Shown in pieces: positions 6,330-15,978 of a stretch of 64,000 nt of DNA. The notes beneath the pieces were generated by a model. That model was not told the DNA's origin, ran no database searches, and was given only the letters and a program-made list of their open reading frames with translations. The stretch spans positions 88,997-152,996 of the forward strand of contig CAKSDI010000002.1 in the NCBI GenBank assembly GCA_934445035.1, in the 5' to 3' direction. A program made the translations under genes and the position numbers. Numbering within the stretch: the stretch's first letter is position 1; each line of letters opens with the position of its first letter. This DNA is from an uncultured Eubacteriales bacterium (GTDB lineage: Bacteria > Bacillota > Clostridia > Oscillospirales > Acutalibacteraceae).

Positions 6330-6351
6330 CCGCCGATTTCGGTGGTTTTTT
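6330..6351 (+). terminator. plus-strand hairpin plus T-run immediately outside IRR
   Basis: CCGCCG(6330-6335)/CGGTGG(6340-6345), 6 bp including one G-U pair, with a 4-nt loop and TTTTTT (6346-6351). It would stop OFF-orientation promoter transcripts before they run antisense into the recombinase gene. Confidence 0.45.
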
Positions 6352-7192
6352 ATATTATAAGCCGCATATTTTCCATACGCTGACGATGTTCCATGCCGGT
6401 GGAGATGATATAAATTCTTGTGGTGTTTATACTTGAATGACCGAGAATATCCGCAAGTTTTGCAATATCCTTTTCAATTCCGTAAAACACCCTTGCGAAC
6501 AGGTGGCGCAGGTTATGCGGAAACACCTTTTGTGGGTTTACATTTGCTTCTTCACACAAGGCTTTCATTTCCCGCCAGATGTTGGTTCGGCTTATCGGCT
6601 TGCCCGTCCTTGTTACAAAAATCATACCGCTTTTAATATTTTGCTCTGCTGCATAGCGGAGCAATTTTTGTTTTAATTCCTTTACGATAAATACCGACCG
6701 CGTTTTCGCCTTGCAGTTCACCACCGCCTCGCCCTGTTTTACCGCCTCAACCGTTATATATTGCAACTCGCTGACGCGGATTCCCGTTCCGCATATAGTC
6801 TGCAAAATAAGATTAAGCCGCTCGTTGTGCTTGCGCTCCGCCGTTCGACAAAGCCGTGTGTATTCCGCTTTTGTCAGTTCTTTTTCTTCGGGGCAGAATA
6901 CCTGCTGCTGCAATTTCAGCGATTTCACCTTTAAATCGTGCCAGCCTAAAAAAGCAAATAGATTGTTGATACTTGCAAGCATTGAATTAACGCTTCGCAC
7001 AGCGTAAGCTTCTTGCAAATGCTTCTTATATGCAATTACGTTTTCTTTTGTAACAGCATTGTTTTGCGTATACGCTGAAAATGCCTTTACATCACGGCTA
7101 TACTTTTCAACTGTTGCCGCACTCCTTTCCTCTAAGATTAGGTGTTCCTTAAATTCGGCAATTACTTTTGCCGTAATAAATCGTCCTTTCAT
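6350..7192 (-). CDS. site-specific tyrosine recombinase (XerC/D-like size, no arm-binding domain); candidate invertase for the adjacent switch
   Basis: SAM-like N-terminal domain (AATVEKYSRDVKAF). Catalytic motifs are GTGIRVSEL (Arg), HNLRHLFA (H-x-x-R-H) and HSSINTTRIYI (His...Tyr). Start taken at ATG 7192 (MKGRFITAK) with a GGAGG RBS. Confidence 0.9.
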   Translation of the reverse strand: MKGRFITAKVIAEFKEHLILEERSAATVEKYSRDVKAFSAYTQNNAVTKENVIAYKKHLQEAYAVRSVNSMLASINNLFAFLGWHDLKVKSLKLQQQVFCPEEKELTKAEYTRLCRTAERKHNERLNLILQTICGTGIRVSELQYITVEAVKQGEAVVNCKAKTRSVFIVKELKQKLLRYAAEQNIKSGMIFVTRTGKPISRTNIWREMKALCEEANVNPQKVFPHNLRHLFARVFYGIEKDIAKLADILGHSSINTTRIYIISTGMEHRQRMENMRLII

Positions 7193-7319
7193 TTTGGTTT
7201 GCCTCCGAGTATTTTTTACTATTTTACCCGAAAAGTATGAAAACAAAAATTGTCGTCCCAAAAGGGTTGTGGTATGTTACCTTGGAAAGAACGATTTTGC
7301 AAGTTATTTTTTATTTTAG

Positions 7320-7348
7320 TTGAAAACAATTTGCCACATTGATATAAT
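7320..7348 (+). promoter_or_regulatory. consensus-like sigma-A promoter upstream of the element's regulatory genes
   Basis: TTGAAA (7320-7325), 17 nt, TATAAT (7343-7348). A structured leader of about 200 nt follows. Confidence 0.6.
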
Positions 7349-7550
7349 TAAAATATTCTTTCCGATCACAACGGCAGCAGCCGTGTGATAAATAAAATTT
7401 ATGTGCCGATGAGGTCACAACTGTGTGACCTCAGATTTCACCGAAGCTCCTAAGGCAATCAGCTGTAGATAGGATAAGCCTTGAAGTCAACAGTTTAATG
7501 GTGCTGTTTCGGCAGCCCTGTGACCTTTCCCACGGCGGAAAGGAATTCAT

Positions 7551-7946
7551 TTGGGGAATACCATTGTTAAGTACGGCGAAGGTACGGTTTCAGTTTCAAA
7601 AGAGGTTGCGGATTTTTTAGAGGCCGACAGAAAAAGGCAGGCGGCTGAAGGTCGGAGCGACCGCCGGCACACGAGTAAGAGTGATTCCGAAACAGTGCTG
7701 CAAACTGCTCAAATTACGGCTGTCAGCGATCCTACCTTTGAAACGGCTTTTAAAAACCTTTGTTTTGAAAAACTGCAAAAAATCATTGCCAACCTTGAGT
7801 TTGAAGATTTCTTTTTGATTCGGTGCTACTTTTTTGAGGAATGCACTATGCAGCAAATTGCAGACAAACTCGGAGTGAGTAAAATGGCAATATCGAAACA
7901 ACTGAAAAAACTCCTGAGCCGGATACGGGAACTTATGGAAACATAG
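7551..7946 (+). CDS. sigma-70 region-4-like helix-turn-helix protein (mobile-element regulator)
   Basis: TTG start with a GGAAAGGA RBS 6 nt upstream. C-terminal HTH reads ECTMQQIADKLGVSKMAISKQLKKLLSRIRELM. Confidence 0.7.
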   Translation: MGNTIVKYGEGTVSVSKEVADFLEADRKRQAAEGRSDRRHTSKSDSETVLQTAQITAVSDPTFETAFKNLCFEKLQKIIANLEFEDFFLIRCYFFEECTMQQIADKLGVSKMAISKQLKKLLSRIRELMET

Positions 7947-8113
7947 GTTTCCGTATTTTTTTGCAATTTTTTAAAATTTTGGTTTACAAACTGCTTTTAA
8001 CTGTCCTAATAAGTAGAGGGATAAATTTCGGAGCATAGATGGCACCTGTATATTTTGTCTGATGCCGTCCGTAATTTATCTCTCAATATTTTATATAAAG
8101 GAGCTGATGCCGA

Positions 8114-8410
8114 ATGATTGTGCCGCAAAATAAAAACGGCAATTTTTTTATGCTGTCAAACAGTATATTTAAGCAAGGTCTTAAACCGAGGGAATTTATT
8201 GTCTACTGCTGCCTTGTAAAACACAGCGATAAAAACGGTGTCTGCTTTCCGTCACGGCGGCTGATTGCCAAGGAGTGCTGTATTGATAAAAAGACGTTGG
8301 ACTCAGCAATCCAAAGTCTTGAAAAAACGGGACTTGTAAAAAAGAAAAAACGCCGCAGACAGGACGGTTCGAACACAAGCAATGCTTACACGGTCAAGCT
8401 GTTTCGGTAG
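8114..8410 (+). CDS. winged helix-turn-helix DNA-binding protein (mobile-element associated)
   Basis: AAAGGAG RBS. FPSRRLIAKECCIDKKTLDSAIQSLEKTGLV is wHTH-like. The tail is basic (KKKKRRRQ). Confidence 0.65.
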   Translation: MIVPQNKNGNFFMLSNSIFKQGLKPREFIVYCCLVKHSDKNGVCFPSRRLIAKECCIDKKTLDSAIQSLEKTGLVKKKKRRRQDGSNTSNAYTVKLFR

Positions 8411-8698
8411 TGTAATTTTTTCGTACAGGGTGGTGTAAGAAACGGTATCGCAGAACTATACCCATAGAACTAAACCCACTGAGTATATATTACAGCAGAA
8501 TAAAGAAATAAGACGGCAAACTTTTCCTCTGCCGAAACAGCCGCAGAAAACGCCCTGTTCGCCGAGCAAGCGAAAAACCGAGTAAACACCCAACCGAGCC
8601 TCACAAAGGCGAAATACGGCGCTGTAAACGGCGTGTACGCCCCTTTTTTCTTTTCTGCTGTGGTAACAGACAGAATACCGCAGGGTGACGCCTTTGTA

Positions 8699-8821
8699 CT
8701 CTCCCTTTGGGGAGAGTGCGAGCATCGCAGACGGCTGGTCGCCGGCAAAGCCGCCCCCTGCCGCTGCTGCTCGGCGGGCAGAAGCCCTGCACCCACTTAC
8801 TTTCTTTGAAAAGAAAGTAAG
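8699..8821 (+). promoter_or_regulatory. candidate oriT region (two hairpins upstream of mobC)
   Basis: Hairpin CTCTCCC(8699-8705)/GGGAGAG(8710-8716) is followed by TGCGAGCAT, so AGTGCG resembles MOBQ-type nic-proximal sequence. A second hairpin CTTACTTTCT(8796-8805)/AGAAAGTAAG(8812-8821) lies 35 nt before the mobC ATG. Confidence 0.4.
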
Positions 8822-8855
8822 CAAAGAAACTTTAATCTTCAATGAAAGGAATTTT

Positions 8856-9167
8856 ATGAAGGATAAGAAACTAAGCATCCGCATCAGCGAACAAGACCTC
8901 GCTGCCATACACCGAAAAGCGAACACGGCAAAGCTTTCCATTACGGACTATATTACACGCTCCTGCCTCAACAAACAAATCATTGTGGTGGACGGGCTTG
9001 AAAATATTATCCGAGAGCAAAAAGCGATCGGTAAAAACCTAAACCGACTCACACTGCTTTGCAATATGGGCAGAGTATCGGTTGCCGATCTGTCTGAAGT
9101 AAAGAATGAGTATGCAAGGCTGAACGAACTTCTTTGTTCTCTGCTTGACAGAAAGCGGTGGCAGTAA
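8856..9167 (+). CDS. mobC: MobC-family relaxosome accessory protein (ribbon-helix-helix)
   Basis: MKDKKLSIRISEQDLAAIHRKANTAKLSITDYITRSCL...IGKNLNRLTLLCN. Internal ATG at 8856 with a GAAAGGA RBS. The stop overlaps the relaxase ATG (TAATG). Confidence 0.8.
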   Translation: MKDKKLSIRISEQDLAAIHRKANTAKLSITDYITRSCLNKQIIVVDGLENIIREQKAIGKNLNRLTLLCNMGRVSVADLSEVKNEYARLNELLCSLLDRKRWQ

Positions 9168-10528
9168 TGGCAACGGTAAATTTAATACAGAGCAAGCGTT
9201 CACAATCGAAAGTCGGACTTAAATTTATTCTTTCCTACTGTAAGCGTGACAGCAAAACCGTGTGTGGAAATAAAAAACTGATCGGCGGTGTGAACTGCGT
9301 TGCCGAAAGCGCATACCACGAAATGCTGTCTACGAAAATGCGGTACGGAAAAACAGACGGCAGAATGTTTTATCATCTGGTGCAGTCCTTCTCGCCGGAG
9401 GAAAACATTACTCCCGAAACCGCATACGAAATTGCTTTGAAATTTGCGGAACGGGAATTTTCCGAATATGAAGTTTTGGTGGCTACCCATACCGACAGGG
9501 CGCATATCCATTCGCATTTTGTTATCAACAGCGTAAGCTGTGAGAACGGATACAAGCTCCGTCTGCCTAAGGATTTTATAGAGCAGCTGCGAAACGCATC
9601 GGACAGGCTTTGTATGGAATACGGTCTGTCGGTTATCCCTACACAACAGAAAAAGAAAATCGTGCGGCAGATGTCCTCAAAGGAATACCGTTCGGCAGTG
9701 CGGGGCGAGAGTTATAAAATGCAGCTTGCGGCAGTCATAGATGACGCAATGGCACGGGCAAAAACAAAAGAAGATTTTATTCGGTCGATGGAAGCCGAGG
9801 GCTACGGTGTGGTATGGACGGACGAGAGAAAATATATCACCTATATCACGCAGGACGGAAAGCGGTGCCGCGACCGCAGCCTGCACGAAGAAAAATATCT
9901 TAAGGAGAATATGGAATATGAATTCGGAATACGGAAGATTATCCTCGGAGGAACTGAAAACGAGAGCGCGGCAGAGTATGCAGAGAGCTGCCGAAGCGAA
10001 GCCCTGCGTAACGGTGACCGAGCCGAACTGGAAAGGAATGCTCGATACGCAGAAAGCGCAGATAGAACTGCTCTCACGGCTGATGAGCGCAACCGAAACG
10101 CTGACAACCAAAGAGGAACTGACGGAGTATATGAACGAGCAGCTGAATATTCTGACCGAGAACAACGCACAGTGCCAAGCGGCGGTGACGGAATTTCAGA
10201 ACAGAATGAGGAAATCGGCAACGGAATTTACCGACTCGATGAAAACGGCGGTGTCGGATACCGAGAAACGGGTTGGGAGGATCAGCGATTATTATTCGAA
10301 CAATCTCTCAATGCTGACGGATACGGCGGAGAAGTATTTGAGCCAGATATTTTGGATTACGGTTATTCCCTCAGCGATAACGGCACTGTATTATCTGACG
10401 CTGCTTATCTTGCGGCTGATATAACAGTCATCATTGACGATGACGCTCCTGTTGAGGATTGCACCACAAGGCACTTCCCCTCAGAGCATAAAAAGAAATA
10501 TTCCGGTCCTGTTATGGGCGGAATGTAA
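9167..10528 (+). CDS. MobA/VirD2-family relaxase (mobilization nuclease)
   Basis: Histidine triad HTDRAHIHSHFVINSV and N-terminal YCKRDSK..GGVNC. A long acidic/Gly-rich C-terminal tail follows. ATG 9167 is translationally coupled to mobC. Confidence 0.85.
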   Translation: MATVNLIQSKRSQSKVGLKFILSYCKRDSKTVCGNKKLIGGVNCVAESAYHEMLSTKMRYGKTDGRMFYHLVQSFSPEENITPETAYEIALKFAEREFSEYEVLVATHTDRAHIHSHFVINSVSCENGYKLRLPKDFIEQLRNASDRLCMEYGLSVIPTQQKKKIVRQMSSKEYRSAVRGESYKMQLAAVIDDAMARAKTKEDFIRSMEAEGYGVVWTDERKYITYITQDGKRCRDRSLHEEKYLKENMEYEFGIRKIILGGTENESAAEYAESCRSEALRNGDRAELERNARYAESADRTALTADERNRNADNQRGTDGVYERAAEYSDREQRTVPSGGDGISEQNEEIGNGIYRLDENGGVGYRETGWEDQRLLFEQSLNADGYGGEVFEPDILDYGYSLSDNGTVLSDAAYLAADITVIIDDDAPVEDCTTRHFPSEHKKKYSGPVMGGM

Positions 10529-10562
10529 AAATACCGAACAGCCTTACGGCGGAAAGGAATCT

Positions 10563-10712
10563 ATGGAGAAAAACGATTACAACATTGAACGGGTTGAGTT
10601 TTACTATAACGGCGACGATGAAAAGTTTGACCGCTTTTTAAGCTCGGCGATAAAAGAATATATCAGTACGGATAAAACGGCGGCCGATTGCGAAAACAGT
10701 AAATCGGCGTAA
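10563..10712 (+). CDS. small hypothetical protein (49 aa)
   Basis: ATG 10563 with a GGAAAGGAA RBS (MEKNDYNIERVEFYYNGDDEKF...). It lies between the relaxase and recombinase genes. Confidence 0.45.
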   Translation: MEKNDYNIERVEFYYNGDDEKFDRFLSSAIKEYISTDKTAADCENSKSA

Positions 10713-10800
10713 TTTATCTGGACTTACGGCAGGTGTTGTGGTATGTTGTTGCGTGGACAGGATATCACGCGCCTGCCGAGAAAAAAGAAAGGTGATTGCT

Positions 10801-12447
10801 ATGAGAGTATGGCTGTATTCAAGGCTTTCCCGTGATGAGGACAGCGAGTTAAATTCACTTACCAATCAGCAAAACATATTGCGGGAATATGCGGCAAACA
10901 ATAACTGCGCCGTTATCGGTGAGTCAGCCGATGACAACATCAGCGGAATGCATTTTAACCGTGAGGGGATAAATAAAATATACGCCGCCGTTGAGGATAA
11001 AAGCATTGACGCGGTAATCGTTAAAGACCTGTCCCGACTCGGACGGCACAGAACGCAGACCGCAATGTTTATAGACTATCTTCGTGAAAATGATGTGCGT
11101 GTGCTTTCGGTAACCGAAAACATAGACACAAGCAACGAGGACGATGATCTGATGGTTGGCTTTAAAGGAATATTCAACGATATGTACGCCAGAGATATAT
11201 CCAAGAAAATCCGTGCGGGATATAAGCAAAAACAAAAAAGCGGTATCGTGATGATACCGCCGCTTGGATACTTCAAGGATAAAAACACGGGCAAGGTTAC
11301 GGTTGTTGAGGAACACGCCGAAATAGTCCGTAAGATATTCAATCTGTATGTATCGGGATACGGGCTTAAAGCTATATCTAAAATTTTGAATGAGGAAGGT
11401 ATTAAATCGCCGGGATATTATCAGAAAAAACTGTTAGGTAAAAATCTCGGATATAATAAACCGGAAATTGCTCACAGATTTTTATGGGAAAATACAGGCG
11501 TAAAAAGAATATTGCAGAATGAGTTTTATATCGGGAATCTTATCTGCCACAAGTCCTATACAAGTAAAATAAATCATATAAGAAAGGAACTGCCGCCCGA
11601 AGAGCATTTCAAACATGAAAACGCCGTGCCTGCAATCATACCGAAAGAGATATGGGAGCAGGCACAGTTTTTACTTGAGCAAAAGCCGAAAAGAAATGTA
11701 AGGGCTTCAAGCGGAAATACACATCACCGATACACGGGGCTTATAAAATGCGGCGATTGCGGTTCATCATTCAGTTGTAAAACAAGATATTGGCGTAATA
11801 ATCCGCCGAGAATGGAATATGTTTGCAACGGCTACCACCGTTACGGAAAGGAAAATTGTTCGCCGCATAAGATTGGTGAGGAAGTTCTTGACAGGCTGAT
11901 ACTTAAAGAGCTTGAGGAGCTTAAAATAATGGCCCATGAAAACTTTAAAAGGGTTGACAAAGAACTGAAAAAGTGGCTTGCTGACCGACCGTCCGCCGAA
12001 AAACAGATAACAGCGCTTAAGAATAAGCTCGCGCAGCGGAAAAACGACCAACAGCAAATACTGCTTGAAAGAATACGGGACAGAGAACACGCCGAAGTAT
12101 ATACCCAAATGCTTGTTTCCTGCGAAACGGATATTAAAACAATCGAAAGCAGAATTCGGGAAATGAAGGATATTGAAACTACCGTAAAGGAACGCAAAAA
12201 GCAAATGAATAAAAGCGTAGAACTGCTTGATGGTATTATAGCCGACGGTGCGATAAACGATACGCATCTCAGGATGTTGGTGGATGAGATCGTTATATAC
12301 GAAAAAAACGGAAAGCTTGATATTCAAATAACGCTTAACGGAGAATTCCGCACGCATATCGACTACTACGATGAAAGCGGAGATATAACCGACAGGCACG
12401 CCGAAATATGGTATTTCCCGAATTGGGAAAGTATGGCGGAGGGTTAA
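10801..12447 (+). CDS. large serine recombinase (resolvase/invertase N-terminal domain, recombinase domain, Zn-ribbon, coiled coil)
   Basis: MRVWLYSRLSRDED contains the catalytic Ser motif; VKDLSRLGRH is also present. The Zn-ribbon reads CGDCGSSFSC...CNGYHRYGKENCSPH. ATG 10801 has an AAAGGTGA RBS. Confidence 0.9.
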   Translation: MRVWLYSRLSRDEDSELNSLTNQQNILREYAANNNCAVIGESADDNISGMHFNREGINKIYAAVEDKSIDAVIVKDLSRLGRHRTQTAMFIDYLRENDVRVLSVTENIDTSNEDDDLMVGFKGIFNDMYARDISKKIRAGYKQKQKSGIVMIPPLGYFKDKNTGKVTVVEEHAEIVRKIFNLYVSGYGLKAISKILNEEGIKSPGYYQKKLLGKNLGYNKPEIAHRFLWENTGVKRILQNEFYIGNLICHKSYTSKINHIRKELPPEEHFKHENAVPAIIPKEIWEQAQFLLEQKPKRNVRASSGNTHHRYTGLIKCGDCGSSFSCKTRYWRNNPPRMEYVCNGYHRYGKENCSPHKIGEEVLDRLILKELEELKIMAHENFKRVDKELKKWLADRPSAEKQITALKNKLAQRKNDQQQILLERIRDREHAEVYTQMLVSCETDIKTIESRIREMKDIETTVKERKKQMNKSVELLDGIIADGAINDTHLRMLVDEIVIYEKNGKLDIQITLNGEFRTHIDYYDESGDITDRHAEIWYFPNWESMAEG

Positions 12448-12616: not shown

Positions 12617-12703
12617 TGGTGCGGGTAAGAGGACTTGAACCTCCACGACCTTGCGATCATTAGAACCTGAATCTAACGCGTCTGCCTATTCCGCCATACC
12701 CGC
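12617..12703 (-). tRNA. tRNA-Leu (anticodon CAG), CCA encoded
   Basis: The minus strand reads GCGGGTATGGCGGAATAGGCAGACGCGTTAGATTCAGGTTCTAATGATCGCAAGGTCGTGGAGGTTCAAGTCCTCTTACCCGCACCA. Acceptor stem GCGGGTA/TACCCGC, anticodon loop TTCAGGT, a long variable arm and T-loop GGTTCAAGTCC. Confidence 0.9.
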
Positions 12704-13080: not shown

Positions 13081-13109
13081 TTCACAATTTATTAAAAAAT
13101 AAGTATTAT
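13081..13109 (+). promoter_or_regulatory. putative htpG promoter
   Basis: TTCACA (13081-13086), 17 nt, TATTAT (13104-13109). The MITE copy begins 5 nt downstream. Confidence 0.45.
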
Positions 13110-13113
13110 AATA

Positions 13114-13172
13114 GACAATACAATCAGACAAATTTTCCGCTATGAGAAGCGTTGTATCCTGATTGTATTGTC
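13114..13172. mobile_element. 59-bp palindromic mini-MITE flanked by a TA duplication
   Basis: Terminal inverted repeats GACAATACAATCA.../...TGATTGTATTGTC. TA is present at 13112-13113 and 13173-13174. Its reverse complement matches 15254-15312 at 57/59. Confidence 0.8.
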
Positions 13173-13203: not shown

Positions 13204-15093
13204 ATGGCAAAAAAGCAATTTAAATCAGAATCAAAAAAACTTATGGATATGATGATAAATTCCATTTATACCCATAAAGAGATTTTTTTGCGGGAAATTA
13301 TATCAAATTCTTCCGACGCTATCGATAAGCTCTATTTCAGAAGTCTTACCGATAACTCTATAGGAATAAAACCCGATGAATTTGCTATTAATATTTCTCT
13401 TGATAAAGAAAACAGGACAATTACCGTTTCTGATAACGGCTGCGGAATGACAAAGGAAGAGCTTGACTCAAATCTTGGTACTATCGCAAAAAGCGGATCT
13501 TCCGCTTTTAAACAGGAAAATAAGGAAACTGATGAAAATGTCAGCATAATAGGTCAGTTTGGAGTAGGTTTTTATTCTGCGTTTATGGTAAGCGATAAAG
13601 TTACCGTAAGGACAAGATCCGTCGATTCCGACAGCGGTTATGAATGGCAGTCGGAGGGCGCTTCCGGATATACTGTTGAGCCTTGTGAAAAGGAAACCGT
13701 CGGCACGGAAGTTATAATGCACATAAAGCCCGATACCGAAGATGAAAAATACAGCGAATATCTCGATCAGTACAGAATAAGCGAGCTTATCAAAAAGTAT
13801 TCCGATTATATCCGCCATCCTATAAAATTGCCTTTTGTGACTAAAAAGCCGGTTGAGGGTAAAGAGGGCGAATATGAGGATGTGACAGAGATCCGCACCC
13901 TTAACAGTATGATTCCGCTTTGGAAAAAGAATAAAAGCGAAATAAAACCCGAGGAATACAATAATTTCTACAAAGAAAAATTTATGGATTACGAAGATCC
14001 TGCCCGTGTTATCCACACCAGCACCGAAGGTCAAGCAACTTTTCACGCACTGATGTTTATTCCGCAGTCTGCACCTTTCGATTATTATACCAAAGAATTT
14101 GAAAAAGGGCTTCAGCTTTACTCGCGCGGCGTGCTTATAATGGATAAATGCGCAGATCTTTTGCCGGATTATTTCAGCTTTGTAAAAGGTCTTGTGGACA
14201 GTGAAGACTTATCGCTTAATATTTCACGCGAAATGCTCCAGCATGACAGACAGCTGAAATTGATTGCAAAAACCGTCGAGAAAAAAATTAAATCCGAGCT
14301 TGAAAAAATGCTCAAAAACGATAGGGAAGCCTACGAAAAGTTCTTTAAAAACTTCGGAACTCAATTAAAATTCGGAGTTTATAATAATTACGGTCTTAAC
14401 AAAGACACCTTAAAAGACCTTTTGCTTTTCACTTCCTCCTTTGAGAAAAAGCCTGTAACTCTTTCGGAGTATGTAAGCAGGGCTAAAGAAGATCAGAAGA
14501 ATATTTACTATGCCTGCGGGGAAACTATAGAGCGCATAGAATTGCTCCCTCAGTGTGACGCCGTGAAAGAAAAAGGCTATGAAATTCTTTATCTTACCGA
14601 AAATATCGATGAATTCGCTCTTAAAATGATGAGGGATTACGACGGAAAAGCGTTTATAAACGTATGCGACGAAAACCTCGATCTCGACACCGAAGAAGAG
14701 AAAAAAGAGCTTGAAAAGATAAACACTGATCAAAAAGAGCTTTTAGACGCTATAAAAGAAAGCTTAGGCACGAAAGTAAATTCCGTAAGATTTACTAATA
14801 AGCTTAAAAATCATCCTGTTTGCCTTACAAGCGAGGGCGGAATTTCGGTTGAAATGGAAAAAACGCTTAACTCTATGCCCGGGCAGAACACGCCTGTAAA
14901 AGCGCAGACCGTTCTTGAAATAAGTACCACGAACCCTGTTGCCGATAAACTGAAATCACTCTTTGATTCAAATAAAGATTTACTTAAGGATTATTCAAAG
15001 CTTCTTTATGACGAGGCTTGCCTTATCGGCGGAAGATCAATAGATGATCCTGCCGAACATACAAGAATAATCTGTGAACTTATGACAAAATAA
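13204..15093 (+). CDS. htpG: molecular chaperone HtpG (Hsp90 family)
   Basis: Hsp90 N-terminal signature YTHKEIFLREIISNSSDAIDKL and GQFGVGFYSAFMV. Length is about 629 aa. ATG 13204 has an AAAGGTGA RBS. Confidence 0.95.
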   Translation: MAKKQFKSESKKLMDMMINSIYTHKEIFLREIISNSSDAIDKLYFRSLTDNSIGIKPDEFAINISLDKENRTITVSDNGCGMTKEELDSNLGTIAKSGSSAFKQENKETDENVSIIGQFGVGFYSAFMVSDKVTVRTRSVDSDSGYEWQSEGASGYTVEPCEKETVGTEVIMHIKPDTEDEKYSEYLDQYRISELIKKYSDYIRHPIKLPFVTKKPVEGKEGEYEDVTEIRTLNSMIPLWKKNKSEIKPEEYNNFYKEKFMDYEDPARVIHTSTEGQATFHALMFIPQSAPFDYYTKEFEKGLQLYSRGVLIMDKCADLLPDYFSFVKGLVDSEDLSLNISREMLQHDRQLKLIAKTVEKKIKSELEKMLKNDREAYEKFFKNFGTQLKFGVYNNYGLNKDTLKDLLLFTSSFEKKPVTLSEYVSRAKEDQKNIYYACGETIERIELLPQCDAVKEKGYEILYLTENIDEFALKMMRDYDGKAFINVCDENLDLDTEEEKKELEKINTDQKELLDAIKESLGTKVNSVRFTNKLKNHPVCLTSEGGISVEMEKTLNSMPGQNTPVKAQTVLEISTTNPVADKLKSLFDSNKDLLKDYSKLLYDEACLIGGRSIDDPAEHTRIICELMTK

Positions 15094-15109: not shown

Positions 15110-15942
15110 ATGAGAAAAAACTTCGGAGCAAAACCGCTTTGTTATCCGCAGCCCGTATTTATACTTGCCGCATTTGATGAATTCGGAACGCCTAACGCTA
15201 TGAACGCGGCGTGGGGAGGAATAAGCGACTCAAACGAAATATCAATGTGCATAGACAATACAATCAGGATACAACGCTTCTCATAGCGGAAAATTTGTCC
15301 GATTATATTGTCTCGTCATTTGAAATACGGCAGTATTCCTGCATTCCTCGACTTCATAATCAAAAAAATTTTCTCGCTATGAGTCGAAGATTTTGTAAGA
15401 TAACGGCGCTGTTTAGCGGCGCGGCGCCCGACCGAGGAATACTGTCGTATTGTGAGCGGAGGGCAACAAAGTTGATAAATGCGCCGTTTCTTCAAAAAAG
15501 CATTGTACCCTGATTGTATTGTCTAAGCGCTTCTCACAAGACCACGAAAAATATTTTGCTTAAAAAAGCTTTTACCGTGAGTATGGCGGACGAGGCTCAT
15601 ATTGCCGCCTGCGATTATGTGGGAATAATTTCTGGAAACAGTGAAAAGGATAAATTTAAAAAAGCGGGATTTACCGCTTTAAAATCAGAATTTGTTGACG
15701 CTCCGCTTATAAGCGAGCTTCCCGTTTCTCTTGAATGCAGGCTTAAAAGCTACGATCAAAAAACAGGCAGACTTGTAGGGGAGATCGTCAATGTAAGCGT
15801 AGACGAAAGCGTTTTGGATGAAAACGGAAAAGTGGATATAAATAAGGCAAAACCTATAACATTCGATCCTTTCAATAACACTTATGCCGTTATCGAAAAG
15901 CAGGTAGGAAAAGCTTTCAGCGACGGAAAGAAATTAAAATAG
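15110..15942 (+). pseudogene. flavin reductase-like (FMN-binding split-barrel) gene disrupted by a MITE insertion
   Basis: The N-terminal 47 codons (MRKNFGAKPLCYPQPVFILAAFDEFGTPNAMNAAWGGISDSNEISMC) hit a stop inside the insert. The C-terminal part (SASHKTTKNILLKKAF...) continues in another frame from 15526. Removing 15254-15525 restores one ORF of about 186 aa. Confidence 0.85.
15254..15523. mobile_element. 270-bp composite MITE with 15-nt terminal inverted repeats and a TA target-site duplication
   Basis: GACAATACAATCAGG (15254-15268) pairs with CCTGATTGTATTGTC (15509-15523). TA is present at 15252-15253 and 15524-15525. The first 59 bp form a complete mini-unit, and a further degenerate core lies at about 15366-15390. 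There is no transposase-sized ORF. Confidence 0.85.
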
Positions 15943-15951
15943 AATAAAAAG

Positions 15952-15978
15952 AACCGCTTTTTATAAAGCGGTTTTTTT
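15952..15978. terminator. bidirectional intrinsic terminator
   Basis: AACCGCTTT/AAAGCGGTT stem with A-run and T-run flanks. It lies between convergent genes. Confidence 0.7.

Follow-up and report, generated by a model that had tools for sequence, protein, structure and literature searches.

A 270-bp non-coding MITE within the flavin reductase gene of an htpG operon in an uncultured gut bacterium

The interrupted gene and its operon

The stretch of DNA analysed here (the window, 64,000 nucleotides) belongs to a genome of 1.70 Mb in six contigs that is 99.8% complete (G000). On its plus strand it carries an htpG gene of 629 aa (13204..15093; HSP90 and HATPase_c matches) and, in the same operon, a flavin reductase gene that lies in two parts: codons 1-48 at 15110..15253 (+), placed by open reading frame, joined frame, Pfam match and alignment, and codons 49-186 plus the stop at 15526..15942 (+), placed by open reading frame, joined frame and alignment. 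The reductase begins 16 nt past the htpG stop, in keeping with the first-pass annotation of this DNA, which had put it directly downstream of htpG. A promoter-like site precedes htpG at 13081-13109, and a terminator scan finds a bidirectional terminator-like hairpin past the reductase gene at 15952..15973. Between the promoter-like site and the htpG start sits a TA-flanked 59-bp mini copy, on the minus strand (13114..13172), of the repeat described below; as it is also found in relatives (L032-L037, L078 and L101), it is an older insertion. Further upstream, positions 6350-12447 hold an integrative mobilisable element adjoining a tRNA-Leu gene (12617-12703), with a tyrosine recombinase, a relaxase-like ORF of 456 aa and a large serine recombinase of 569 aa. 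The last of these is 98.7% identical to a recombinase in another species of the genus (G020), a resemblance that suggests recent horizontal transfer.

The two parts of the reductase gene are separated by a 270-bp element at 15254..15523, a family 1 copy that runs from its left to its right end on the plus strand, with a TA at each flank (15252..15253 and 15524..15525). These limits can be read from the sequence to the base, and the insert, 15-nt terminal inverted repeats (TIRs) and TA flanks given in the first-pass annotation are exact. The left end, GACAATACAATCAGG (15254-15268), has its exact reverse complement, CCTGATTGTATTGTC, at 15509-15523. Beyond these 15 perfect nucleotides the left TIR extends to about 26 nt with two or three mismatches (15254..15279, plus strand) and pairs, in the inverted-repeat analysis, with the right TIR (15498..15523, minus strand), the inverted repeat reaching 26-31 nt at 90% complementarity. 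The TIR consensus over family copies is GACAATACAATCAGGRTACAAYRCTT, and this feature of bacterial MITEs is conserved across all of them.

Both TAs are taken as copies of the target on the same two grounds, namely that relatives have a single TA and that the reading frame is restored only by excising the element together with one TA. Joining 15110-15253 to 15526-15942 yields one open frame of 186 aa (...ISMCI-SASHKTT...), and stops appear in the joined gene when both TAs are kept or both removed. The joined protein matches Pfam Flavin_Reduct (PF01613) over residues 11-146 with E=1.1e-15, has the length of nearly all among the 120 homologues listed, and aligns to its best match, P0001, at 96% identity without a gap at the junction. 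The in-frame, flavin reductase-like product of about 186 aa predicted from the letters alone is thereby borne out.

The metagenome contigs that encode P0001 likewise have htpG followed by the reductase, and their DNA passes directly from ATGTGCATA to AGCGCTTCTCAC, a single TA standing in place of the TA-element-TA of the window. The empty site and its single TA (ATGTGCATA joined to AGCGCT) occur on L032, L034, L037 and L078, the last of which (CAKSGV) is a species-representative MAG, and remoter orthologs, at 74-80% identity, are also uninterrupted and 186 aa long. Given that the gene is uninterrupted in close and distant orthologs alike, it is the interrupted form that is derived, and the duplication of 2 bp is genuine. 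Relatives with htpG synteny thus carry a continuous gene, the opposite of sharing the same 270 bp, and the clean, TA-duplicating split of a gene by a MITE that the first-pass annotation proposed, and for which it had suggested a comparison of strains, agrees with the empty single-TA site.

The same annotation called the insertion recent, which holds relative to species divergence and fails if a private event is meant, as the allele is fixed and present in at least five samples. Against the intact ortholog the two gene halves show 28 synonymous and 7 non-synonymous codon differences (93.6% nucleotide identity), mostly synonymous divergence with neither stop nor frameshift, and so are otherwise intact, as had been stated. 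The neighbouring htpG has a similar ratio (96:17), from which it follows that purifying selection acted on the reductase for most of the divergence. This copy of the element has no private substitution, its four differences from the family consensus all being shared variants. The insertion post-dates the split from the lineage that is about 94% identical. Within the window's own lineage, about 20 contigs, drawn from at least five independent samples, have a called N-terminal product of 58 aa that includes 10 residues encoded by the element, a 119-aa C-terminal remnant (P0121) is called on 21 contigs, and contigs with the interrupted allele match the window at 99.8-100% identity. The records contain no intact allele of the type found in this lineage, the full-length members of the cluster all being of the sister-lineage type, and the insertion is therefore fixed in this lineage.

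The point of insertion is the TA of codons 48/49 (ATA-AGC). The 5' fragment now runs into 10 element-encoded codons (DNTIRIQRFS) and a stop at 15284-15286, and since the remaining 138 codons lack an upstream translation signal, the reductase gene has presumably been knocked out. No paralog was found in a search of the window's genome. With the next gene downstream on the opposite strand and the reductase last before the terminator, no polar effect on downstream genes is expected. In a third relative, UMGS949 (L101:7380-7500, contig URFG01000003.1), the reductase gene is absent and the htpG stop runs straight into the terminator. As the gene is intact in a sister lineage and deleted in this third one, the group can do without it and is losing it in more than one way. 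The locus therefore captures a gene loss in progress (intact in one lineage, MITE-split in a second, deleted in a third), and strains can be told apart by its clean states, whether filled, empty or deleted. The split also has a consequence for annotation, with gene callers dividing the reductase into products of 58 and 119 aa.

The repeat family and its short form

The genome that holds the window contains about 20 full-length copies of the element, this one included, at 92-100% identity, together with about 13 stand-alone 59-bp copies, each flanked by TA, and a few deletion derivatives. A repeat structure shared by so many full copies at such identity is not due to chance, and the genome-wide count that the first-pass annotation had suggested reveals a multi-copy family. 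When one genome of each prokaryote species was scanned for the 26-nt TIR, 69 loci emerged, all of them within about 14 MAGs that are labelled as uncultured Ruminococcaceae or Eubacteriales and were obtained from rumen and from human gut, Hadza included; a metagenome scan added at least 120 loci, with the family present on more than 100 gut-metagenome contigs. Plasmid, phage and viral collections gave no match to the element. As far as searched, the family is confined to a group of uncultured Ruminococcaceae of the human and animal gut, and it constitutes a so far undescribed MITE family in abundant but uncultured bacteria.

Among the genome loci and the metagenome matches listed, element sizes fall into two sharply separate peaks, at 270 and 59 bp. 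Of 56 distinct sites, 50 have TA on both sides of the element, and a second case of an empty site, again with a single TA, is seen on L110 opposite C3:42697. That the element is transposable rests on insertion polymorphism, target duplication and copy number. In the window's genome, 18 of the 20 full copies lie between genes or at gene ends, leaving only two within genes: the copy in the flavin reductase and one in an ECF-type sigma factor of 396 aa (C1:130945-131214). The latter is inserted at a TA just past Sigma70 region 4 and leaves the sigma domains on one side and about 240 aa of C-terminal extension on the other.

Several observations in the vicinity of other copies deserve mention in their own right. 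Two full copies in the same orientation surround a 3.4 kb ABC-transporter operon at C1:211219-215153, a layout like that of a composite transposon that is probably coincidental. At C4:31800-33500 and C5:108500-109400 (L039 and L038), tandem arrays of near-identical 82-aa ORFs, with an ORF of 185 aa beside them, adjoin MITE copies; the 82-aa arrays look like the immunity-gene arrays of a polymorphic toxin locus. On five metagenome contigs (L163:1-1070, L186:7706-8793, L190, L205 and L255), the left end of the MITE survives as 43 nt, 26 of them exact, that directly abut a module with a 50-aa ORF, to which the L163 copy adds a serine recombinase gene; the module has the appearance of an integrative element that landed inside a MITE copy or next to one. 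A second TA-flanked MITE family, of about 277 bp, occurs in G020 and G019 (L143-L152, e.g. L150:965-1239) at 92-99% identity between the two species and is absent from the window's genome. Its TIRs are unrelated to those of family 1 and are themselves hairpins resembling a tRNA T-arm (GTGTGACAGGACTCGAACCTGTCAC), but the two families have in common an internal module of 56-86 nt at 77-79% identity, with the core TTGAAATACGGCAGTATTCCTGC.

The 270-bp element is non-coding. The first-pass annotation had reported an insert free of any transposase, whose only long ORF, 15211..15513, starts in the host gene; that ORF does exist (100 aa, GTG start, in a frame differing from that of the host gene), and neither it nor a 59-aa ORF on the minus strand has a match in a Pfam search. 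Across 42 distinct copies no frame stays open throughout and the ratio of synonymous to non-synonymous change is flat in all six frames, which together establish the absence of coding function. No Rfam family matches the element, the only match being a sub-threshold one to DicF that lies outside it, and a consensus scan detected neither promoter nor terminator within it.

The predicted RNA of the element folds into a Y, with the TIRs as stem and two long arms (-102.9 kcal/mol, z = -7.9). Two-sided changes are found at several stem pairs in both arms and in the TIRs; alignment pair 29:130, for instance, is U-A in 29 copies and C-G in 12. Palindromes are able to correct themselves via template switching, and since the copies are related, such two-sided changes show that the hairpins have been maintained across copies, from which no function of an RNA follows.

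The short form can be found within the long one. The first 59 bp of the element in the window (15254..15312, plus strand) comprise the left TIR, a core of 29 nt and, on the inner side, a second copy of the TIR in inverted orientation, a layout identical to that of the dispersed 59-bp copies. Repeat analysis identifies a direct repeat, GATTATATTGTCT at 15301..15313 (+) and GATTGTATTGTCT at 15512..15524 (+), with a spacing of 211 bp, and 270 - 211 = 59. At three orthologous TA sites the 270-bp form in one genome faces the 59-bp form in another (C1:251562 and L053; C5:151594 and L111/L112; C4:73446 and L060). Orientation fits simple deletion in two of these three pairs, and the third has an inverted mini copy, which needs an extra step or an independent event. 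The 59-bp form thus probably arises by in-situ deletion of 211 bp between the direct repeats of 12-13 nt. A 59-bp copy at C3:42697 faces the empty site in UMGS949, so that either the mini form moves too or a full copy inserted there and then shrank.

Target preference and the mobilising enzyme

Elements with a TA duplication and short TIRs bear the hallmark of the IS630/Tc1-mariner group, and the first-pass annotation had expected both such a derivation and an autonomous partner elsewhere in the genome. Neither expectation is supported by the searches. Profiles of 13 transposase Pfam families (DDE_3, DDE_Tnp_1, DDE_Tnp_1_2, Y1_Tnp, rve, Transposase_1, the TnpB Zn-ribbon, IS1595, Mutator, IS110, ISL3, DUF772 and DDE_Tnp_4) were negative in the window's genome, where sub-threshold matches are false, such as one of 16 bits in a beta-lactamase-like ORF. 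The IS630 profile DDE_3 (PF13358) was also negative in G019, G020, G021 and G011, among them three further MITE-bearing genomes; the mariner profile Transposase_1 (PF01359) was negative in the same five genomes, but the control genomes were silent as well. Apart from the MITE and paralogs, no repeat in the window's genome exceeds 300 bp, and the contig ends bear no IS. The transposase-bearing parent for which the earlier annotation had proposed a search does not appear: neither in that genome, nor at the 69 genome loci, nor among the metagenome loci listed (at least 120) do TIRs enclose an ORF-bearing element of more than 272 bp.

Candidate parents, taken individually, were likewise rejected. 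Pairs of TIRs 0.5-4 kb apart in the window's genome enclose only housekeeping genes, and solo TIRs (C1:19528, C4:26036 and C5:108574) abut ordinary genes, isolated TIR ends being truncations beside host genes. The rve matches in G019 and G021 are IS3-like and lack the TIRs. DDE_3 occurs in 22 of 301 genomes of the bacterial family and only once in the genus (G130), where the IS630 TIR, ATACTAAACACCA..., is unrelated; none of the 20 DDE_3 loci of the bacterial family has a TIR-like match flanking the gene at up to four mismatches. Large serine recombinases, considered as mobilisers, have no shared ortholog among the hosts, and the one in the window sits in an unrelated integrative element. The family thus exceeds 30 copies per 1.7-Mb genome and is polymorphic in its insertions among closely related lineages, yet its hosts have no recognisable transposase.

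The target sites have a signature of their own. Pooling 100 target half-sites gives the consensus TTGnnTA, with T, T and G at frequencies of 0.53, 0.45 and 0.48, compared with 0.28, 0.28 and 0.19 at random TA sites. These bases, at -5 to -3, are the same and have the same spacing as in the element end, TTGTC-TA, a likeness that involves only three positions per half-site; the mean number of half-site matches to the element end is 1.46, against 0.75 at random TA sites. The preferred target, TTGnnTAnnCAA, is palindromic and resembles the joined ends of the element. Site-specific recombinases that act on a 2-bp core, such as those of Tn4451 and Tn5397, typically show likeness of this kind between target and joined ends, which is not a known feature of Tc1/mariner elements. 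The likeness offers a testable handle on the puzzle of mobilisation.

The account that best fits these data, and that we consider highly probable as a whole, is that of a MITE copy whose insertion knocked out a gene and became fixed in the lineage, in a family mobilised in trans without a resident enzyme and giving rise to mini copies by deletion. The element would have integrated at the TA of codons 48/49 of the last gene of the htpG operon, duplicating the TA; the protein would be truncated after residue 48, followed by 10 residues encoded by the element, and the gene would be inactive. A protein supplied in trans would recognise the 26-bp TIRs, join them to TA and prefer the palindrome TTGnnTAnnCAA, and the 59-bp mini copies would mostly be secondary products. 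This protein appears to be encoded neither in the window's genome nor in the relatives examined, in which case the family may be the fossil of a lost autonomous element, or its enzyme may come from unassembled or foreign DNA.

Explanations that differ from this account chiefly concern the enzyme. In its strong form, descent from IS630/Tc1-mariner elements supposes that an autonomous IS630-type parent elsewhere in this genome supplies the transposase. The 2-bp TA duplication and short TIRs are what such an origin would leave, RUP of S. pneumoniae provides a precedent (PMC2229807), and DDE_3 genes do circulate in the bacterial family; set against these are the five genomes negative for DDE_3, the window's genome among them, the dearth there of long repeats and of IS at contig ends, TIR pairs that enclose no transposase in any of the genome or metagenome loci listed, and the unrelated TIRs of the genus's one IS630, so that a resident parent of this type is very unlikely. 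A weaker form, in which an IS630-type enzyme, now lost or external, once moved the element, is a serious possibility, falling only somewhat short of even chances. Strand exchange at a 2-bp TA core could instead be the work of a site-specific recombinase resembling TnpX of Tn4451, TnpA of IS607 or IS110-type enzymes. The element would then move as a circle, closed by the perfectly palindromic joint TTGTC-TA-GACAA, and the apparent target duplication would be the shared crossover dinucleotide. The T, T and G common to target half-sites (TTGnnTA) and element end (TTGTCTA) would fit such an enzyme; a palindromic core would also permit inversion in situ, and so explain the inverted mini copy, and the 43-nt TIR remnant abuts a serine-recombinase element in five metagenome contigs. 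However, the MITE-bearing genomes have no recombinase in common: the large serine recombinases of the window's genome (three) and of G021 (one) are at most 28% identical, the recombinase in the window has its near-identical counterpart in G020, which lacks family 1, the window's genome has no IS110 DEDD match, and no recombinase locus is flanked by the TIRs. A preference for palindromic targets is, moreover, also possible with dimeric DDE transposases, and this mechanism is accordingly rated improbable. There is an outside chance that both MITE families are moved by an enzyme beyond the known transposase families that reads TTGnnTA at ends and target and resembles a site-specific recombinase. 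Were that so, it would explain the lack of a host transposase, the likeness of target and ends and the inverted copy at the same TA, as well as the conservation across species of the 270-bp length and of the stem pairings.

Two further explanations dispute the insertion itself. Both gene halves are intact and the predicted RNA fold is very stable (the energy and z-score given above), as might be expected if the 272 nt were an intervening sequence, intron-like or bypassed in translation, with the reductase still made; but the element has no Rfam intron or ribozyme match and occurs at more than 50 unrelated, mostly intergenic sites, 272 is not a multiple of three, and the deletion of the gene in a relative marks it as dispensable, all of which makes this extremely improbable. 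The chance that an assembly artefact misplaced a repeat copy inside the gene is close to negligible, as both junctions recur in independent assemblies from at least five samples and the 119-aa remnant is called on 21 contigs. It is worth noting, however, that assemblers do break or mis-join contigs at these repeats, and that one metagenome contig (L139) switches at the MITE to the flank of another copy (C4:33543). On that contig (L139:3143-4285), htpG and the 5' reductase fragment are followed by the MITE and then by the flank of the other copy (C4:33815-32672 in the window's genome); the contig is either chimeric through misassembly at the repeat or the product of a genuine recombination event between copies.

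Comparison with known mobile repeats

As a mechanistic analogy only, the serine-recombinase transposons of the Tn4451/Tn5397 type share with the element a 2-bp core on both sides, targets that resemble the joined ends, and a single copy of the core left on excision. They differ in carrying their own recombinase and in using a GA core, whereas the hosts of the MITE have no conserved cognate recombinase. Closer in kind are ERIC/IRU of enterobacteria and Nezha of cyanobacteria, which are small, structured, TIR-bearing repeats flanked by TA, with filled and empty sites among strains; hosts and sequences are different, and the family described here is without a detectable partner, whereas Nezha has an ISNpu3-like one. 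RUP, with IS630-Spn1, is likewise a Firmicute MITE with TA insertion and short TIRs that lands in genes, and it lands in IS elements as well. Its TIRs match those of the resident IS630-Spn1, in contrast to the present family, for which the searches turned up neither an IS630 nor any other IS with TIRs that match.

TIRs, TA termini, duplicated targets and long stem-loops are the usual features of bacterial MITEs, and RUP is the only one among those described for which a partner IS has been proposed (PMC2229807); in lacking a cognate IS with matching TIRs, the 270-bp element is like most of them (PMC2229807). It is most fully paralleled by the Correia elements of Neisseria (NEMIS, CREE), which are non-coding, have many dispersed copies and duplicate TA, with TIRs of about 24-26 bp (PMC2229807); the likeness is one of features, and none of sequence is expected. 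Correia elements also have size variants related by an internal deletion (about 155 and 107 bp), form a long hairpin when transcribed, are mostly intergenic with occasional disruption of a gene, and have no cognate transposase identified in the host (PMC2229807), so that the puzzle of mobilisation is the same one that Correia and ERIC elements pose. Unlike Correia elements, the element described here is 270 bp long, has a Y fold with two internal arms and a short form of only 59 bp, and lives in a Gram-positive gut anaerobe. It is a non-autonomous TIR element, a MITE, and its family is a new one of a well-known kind.
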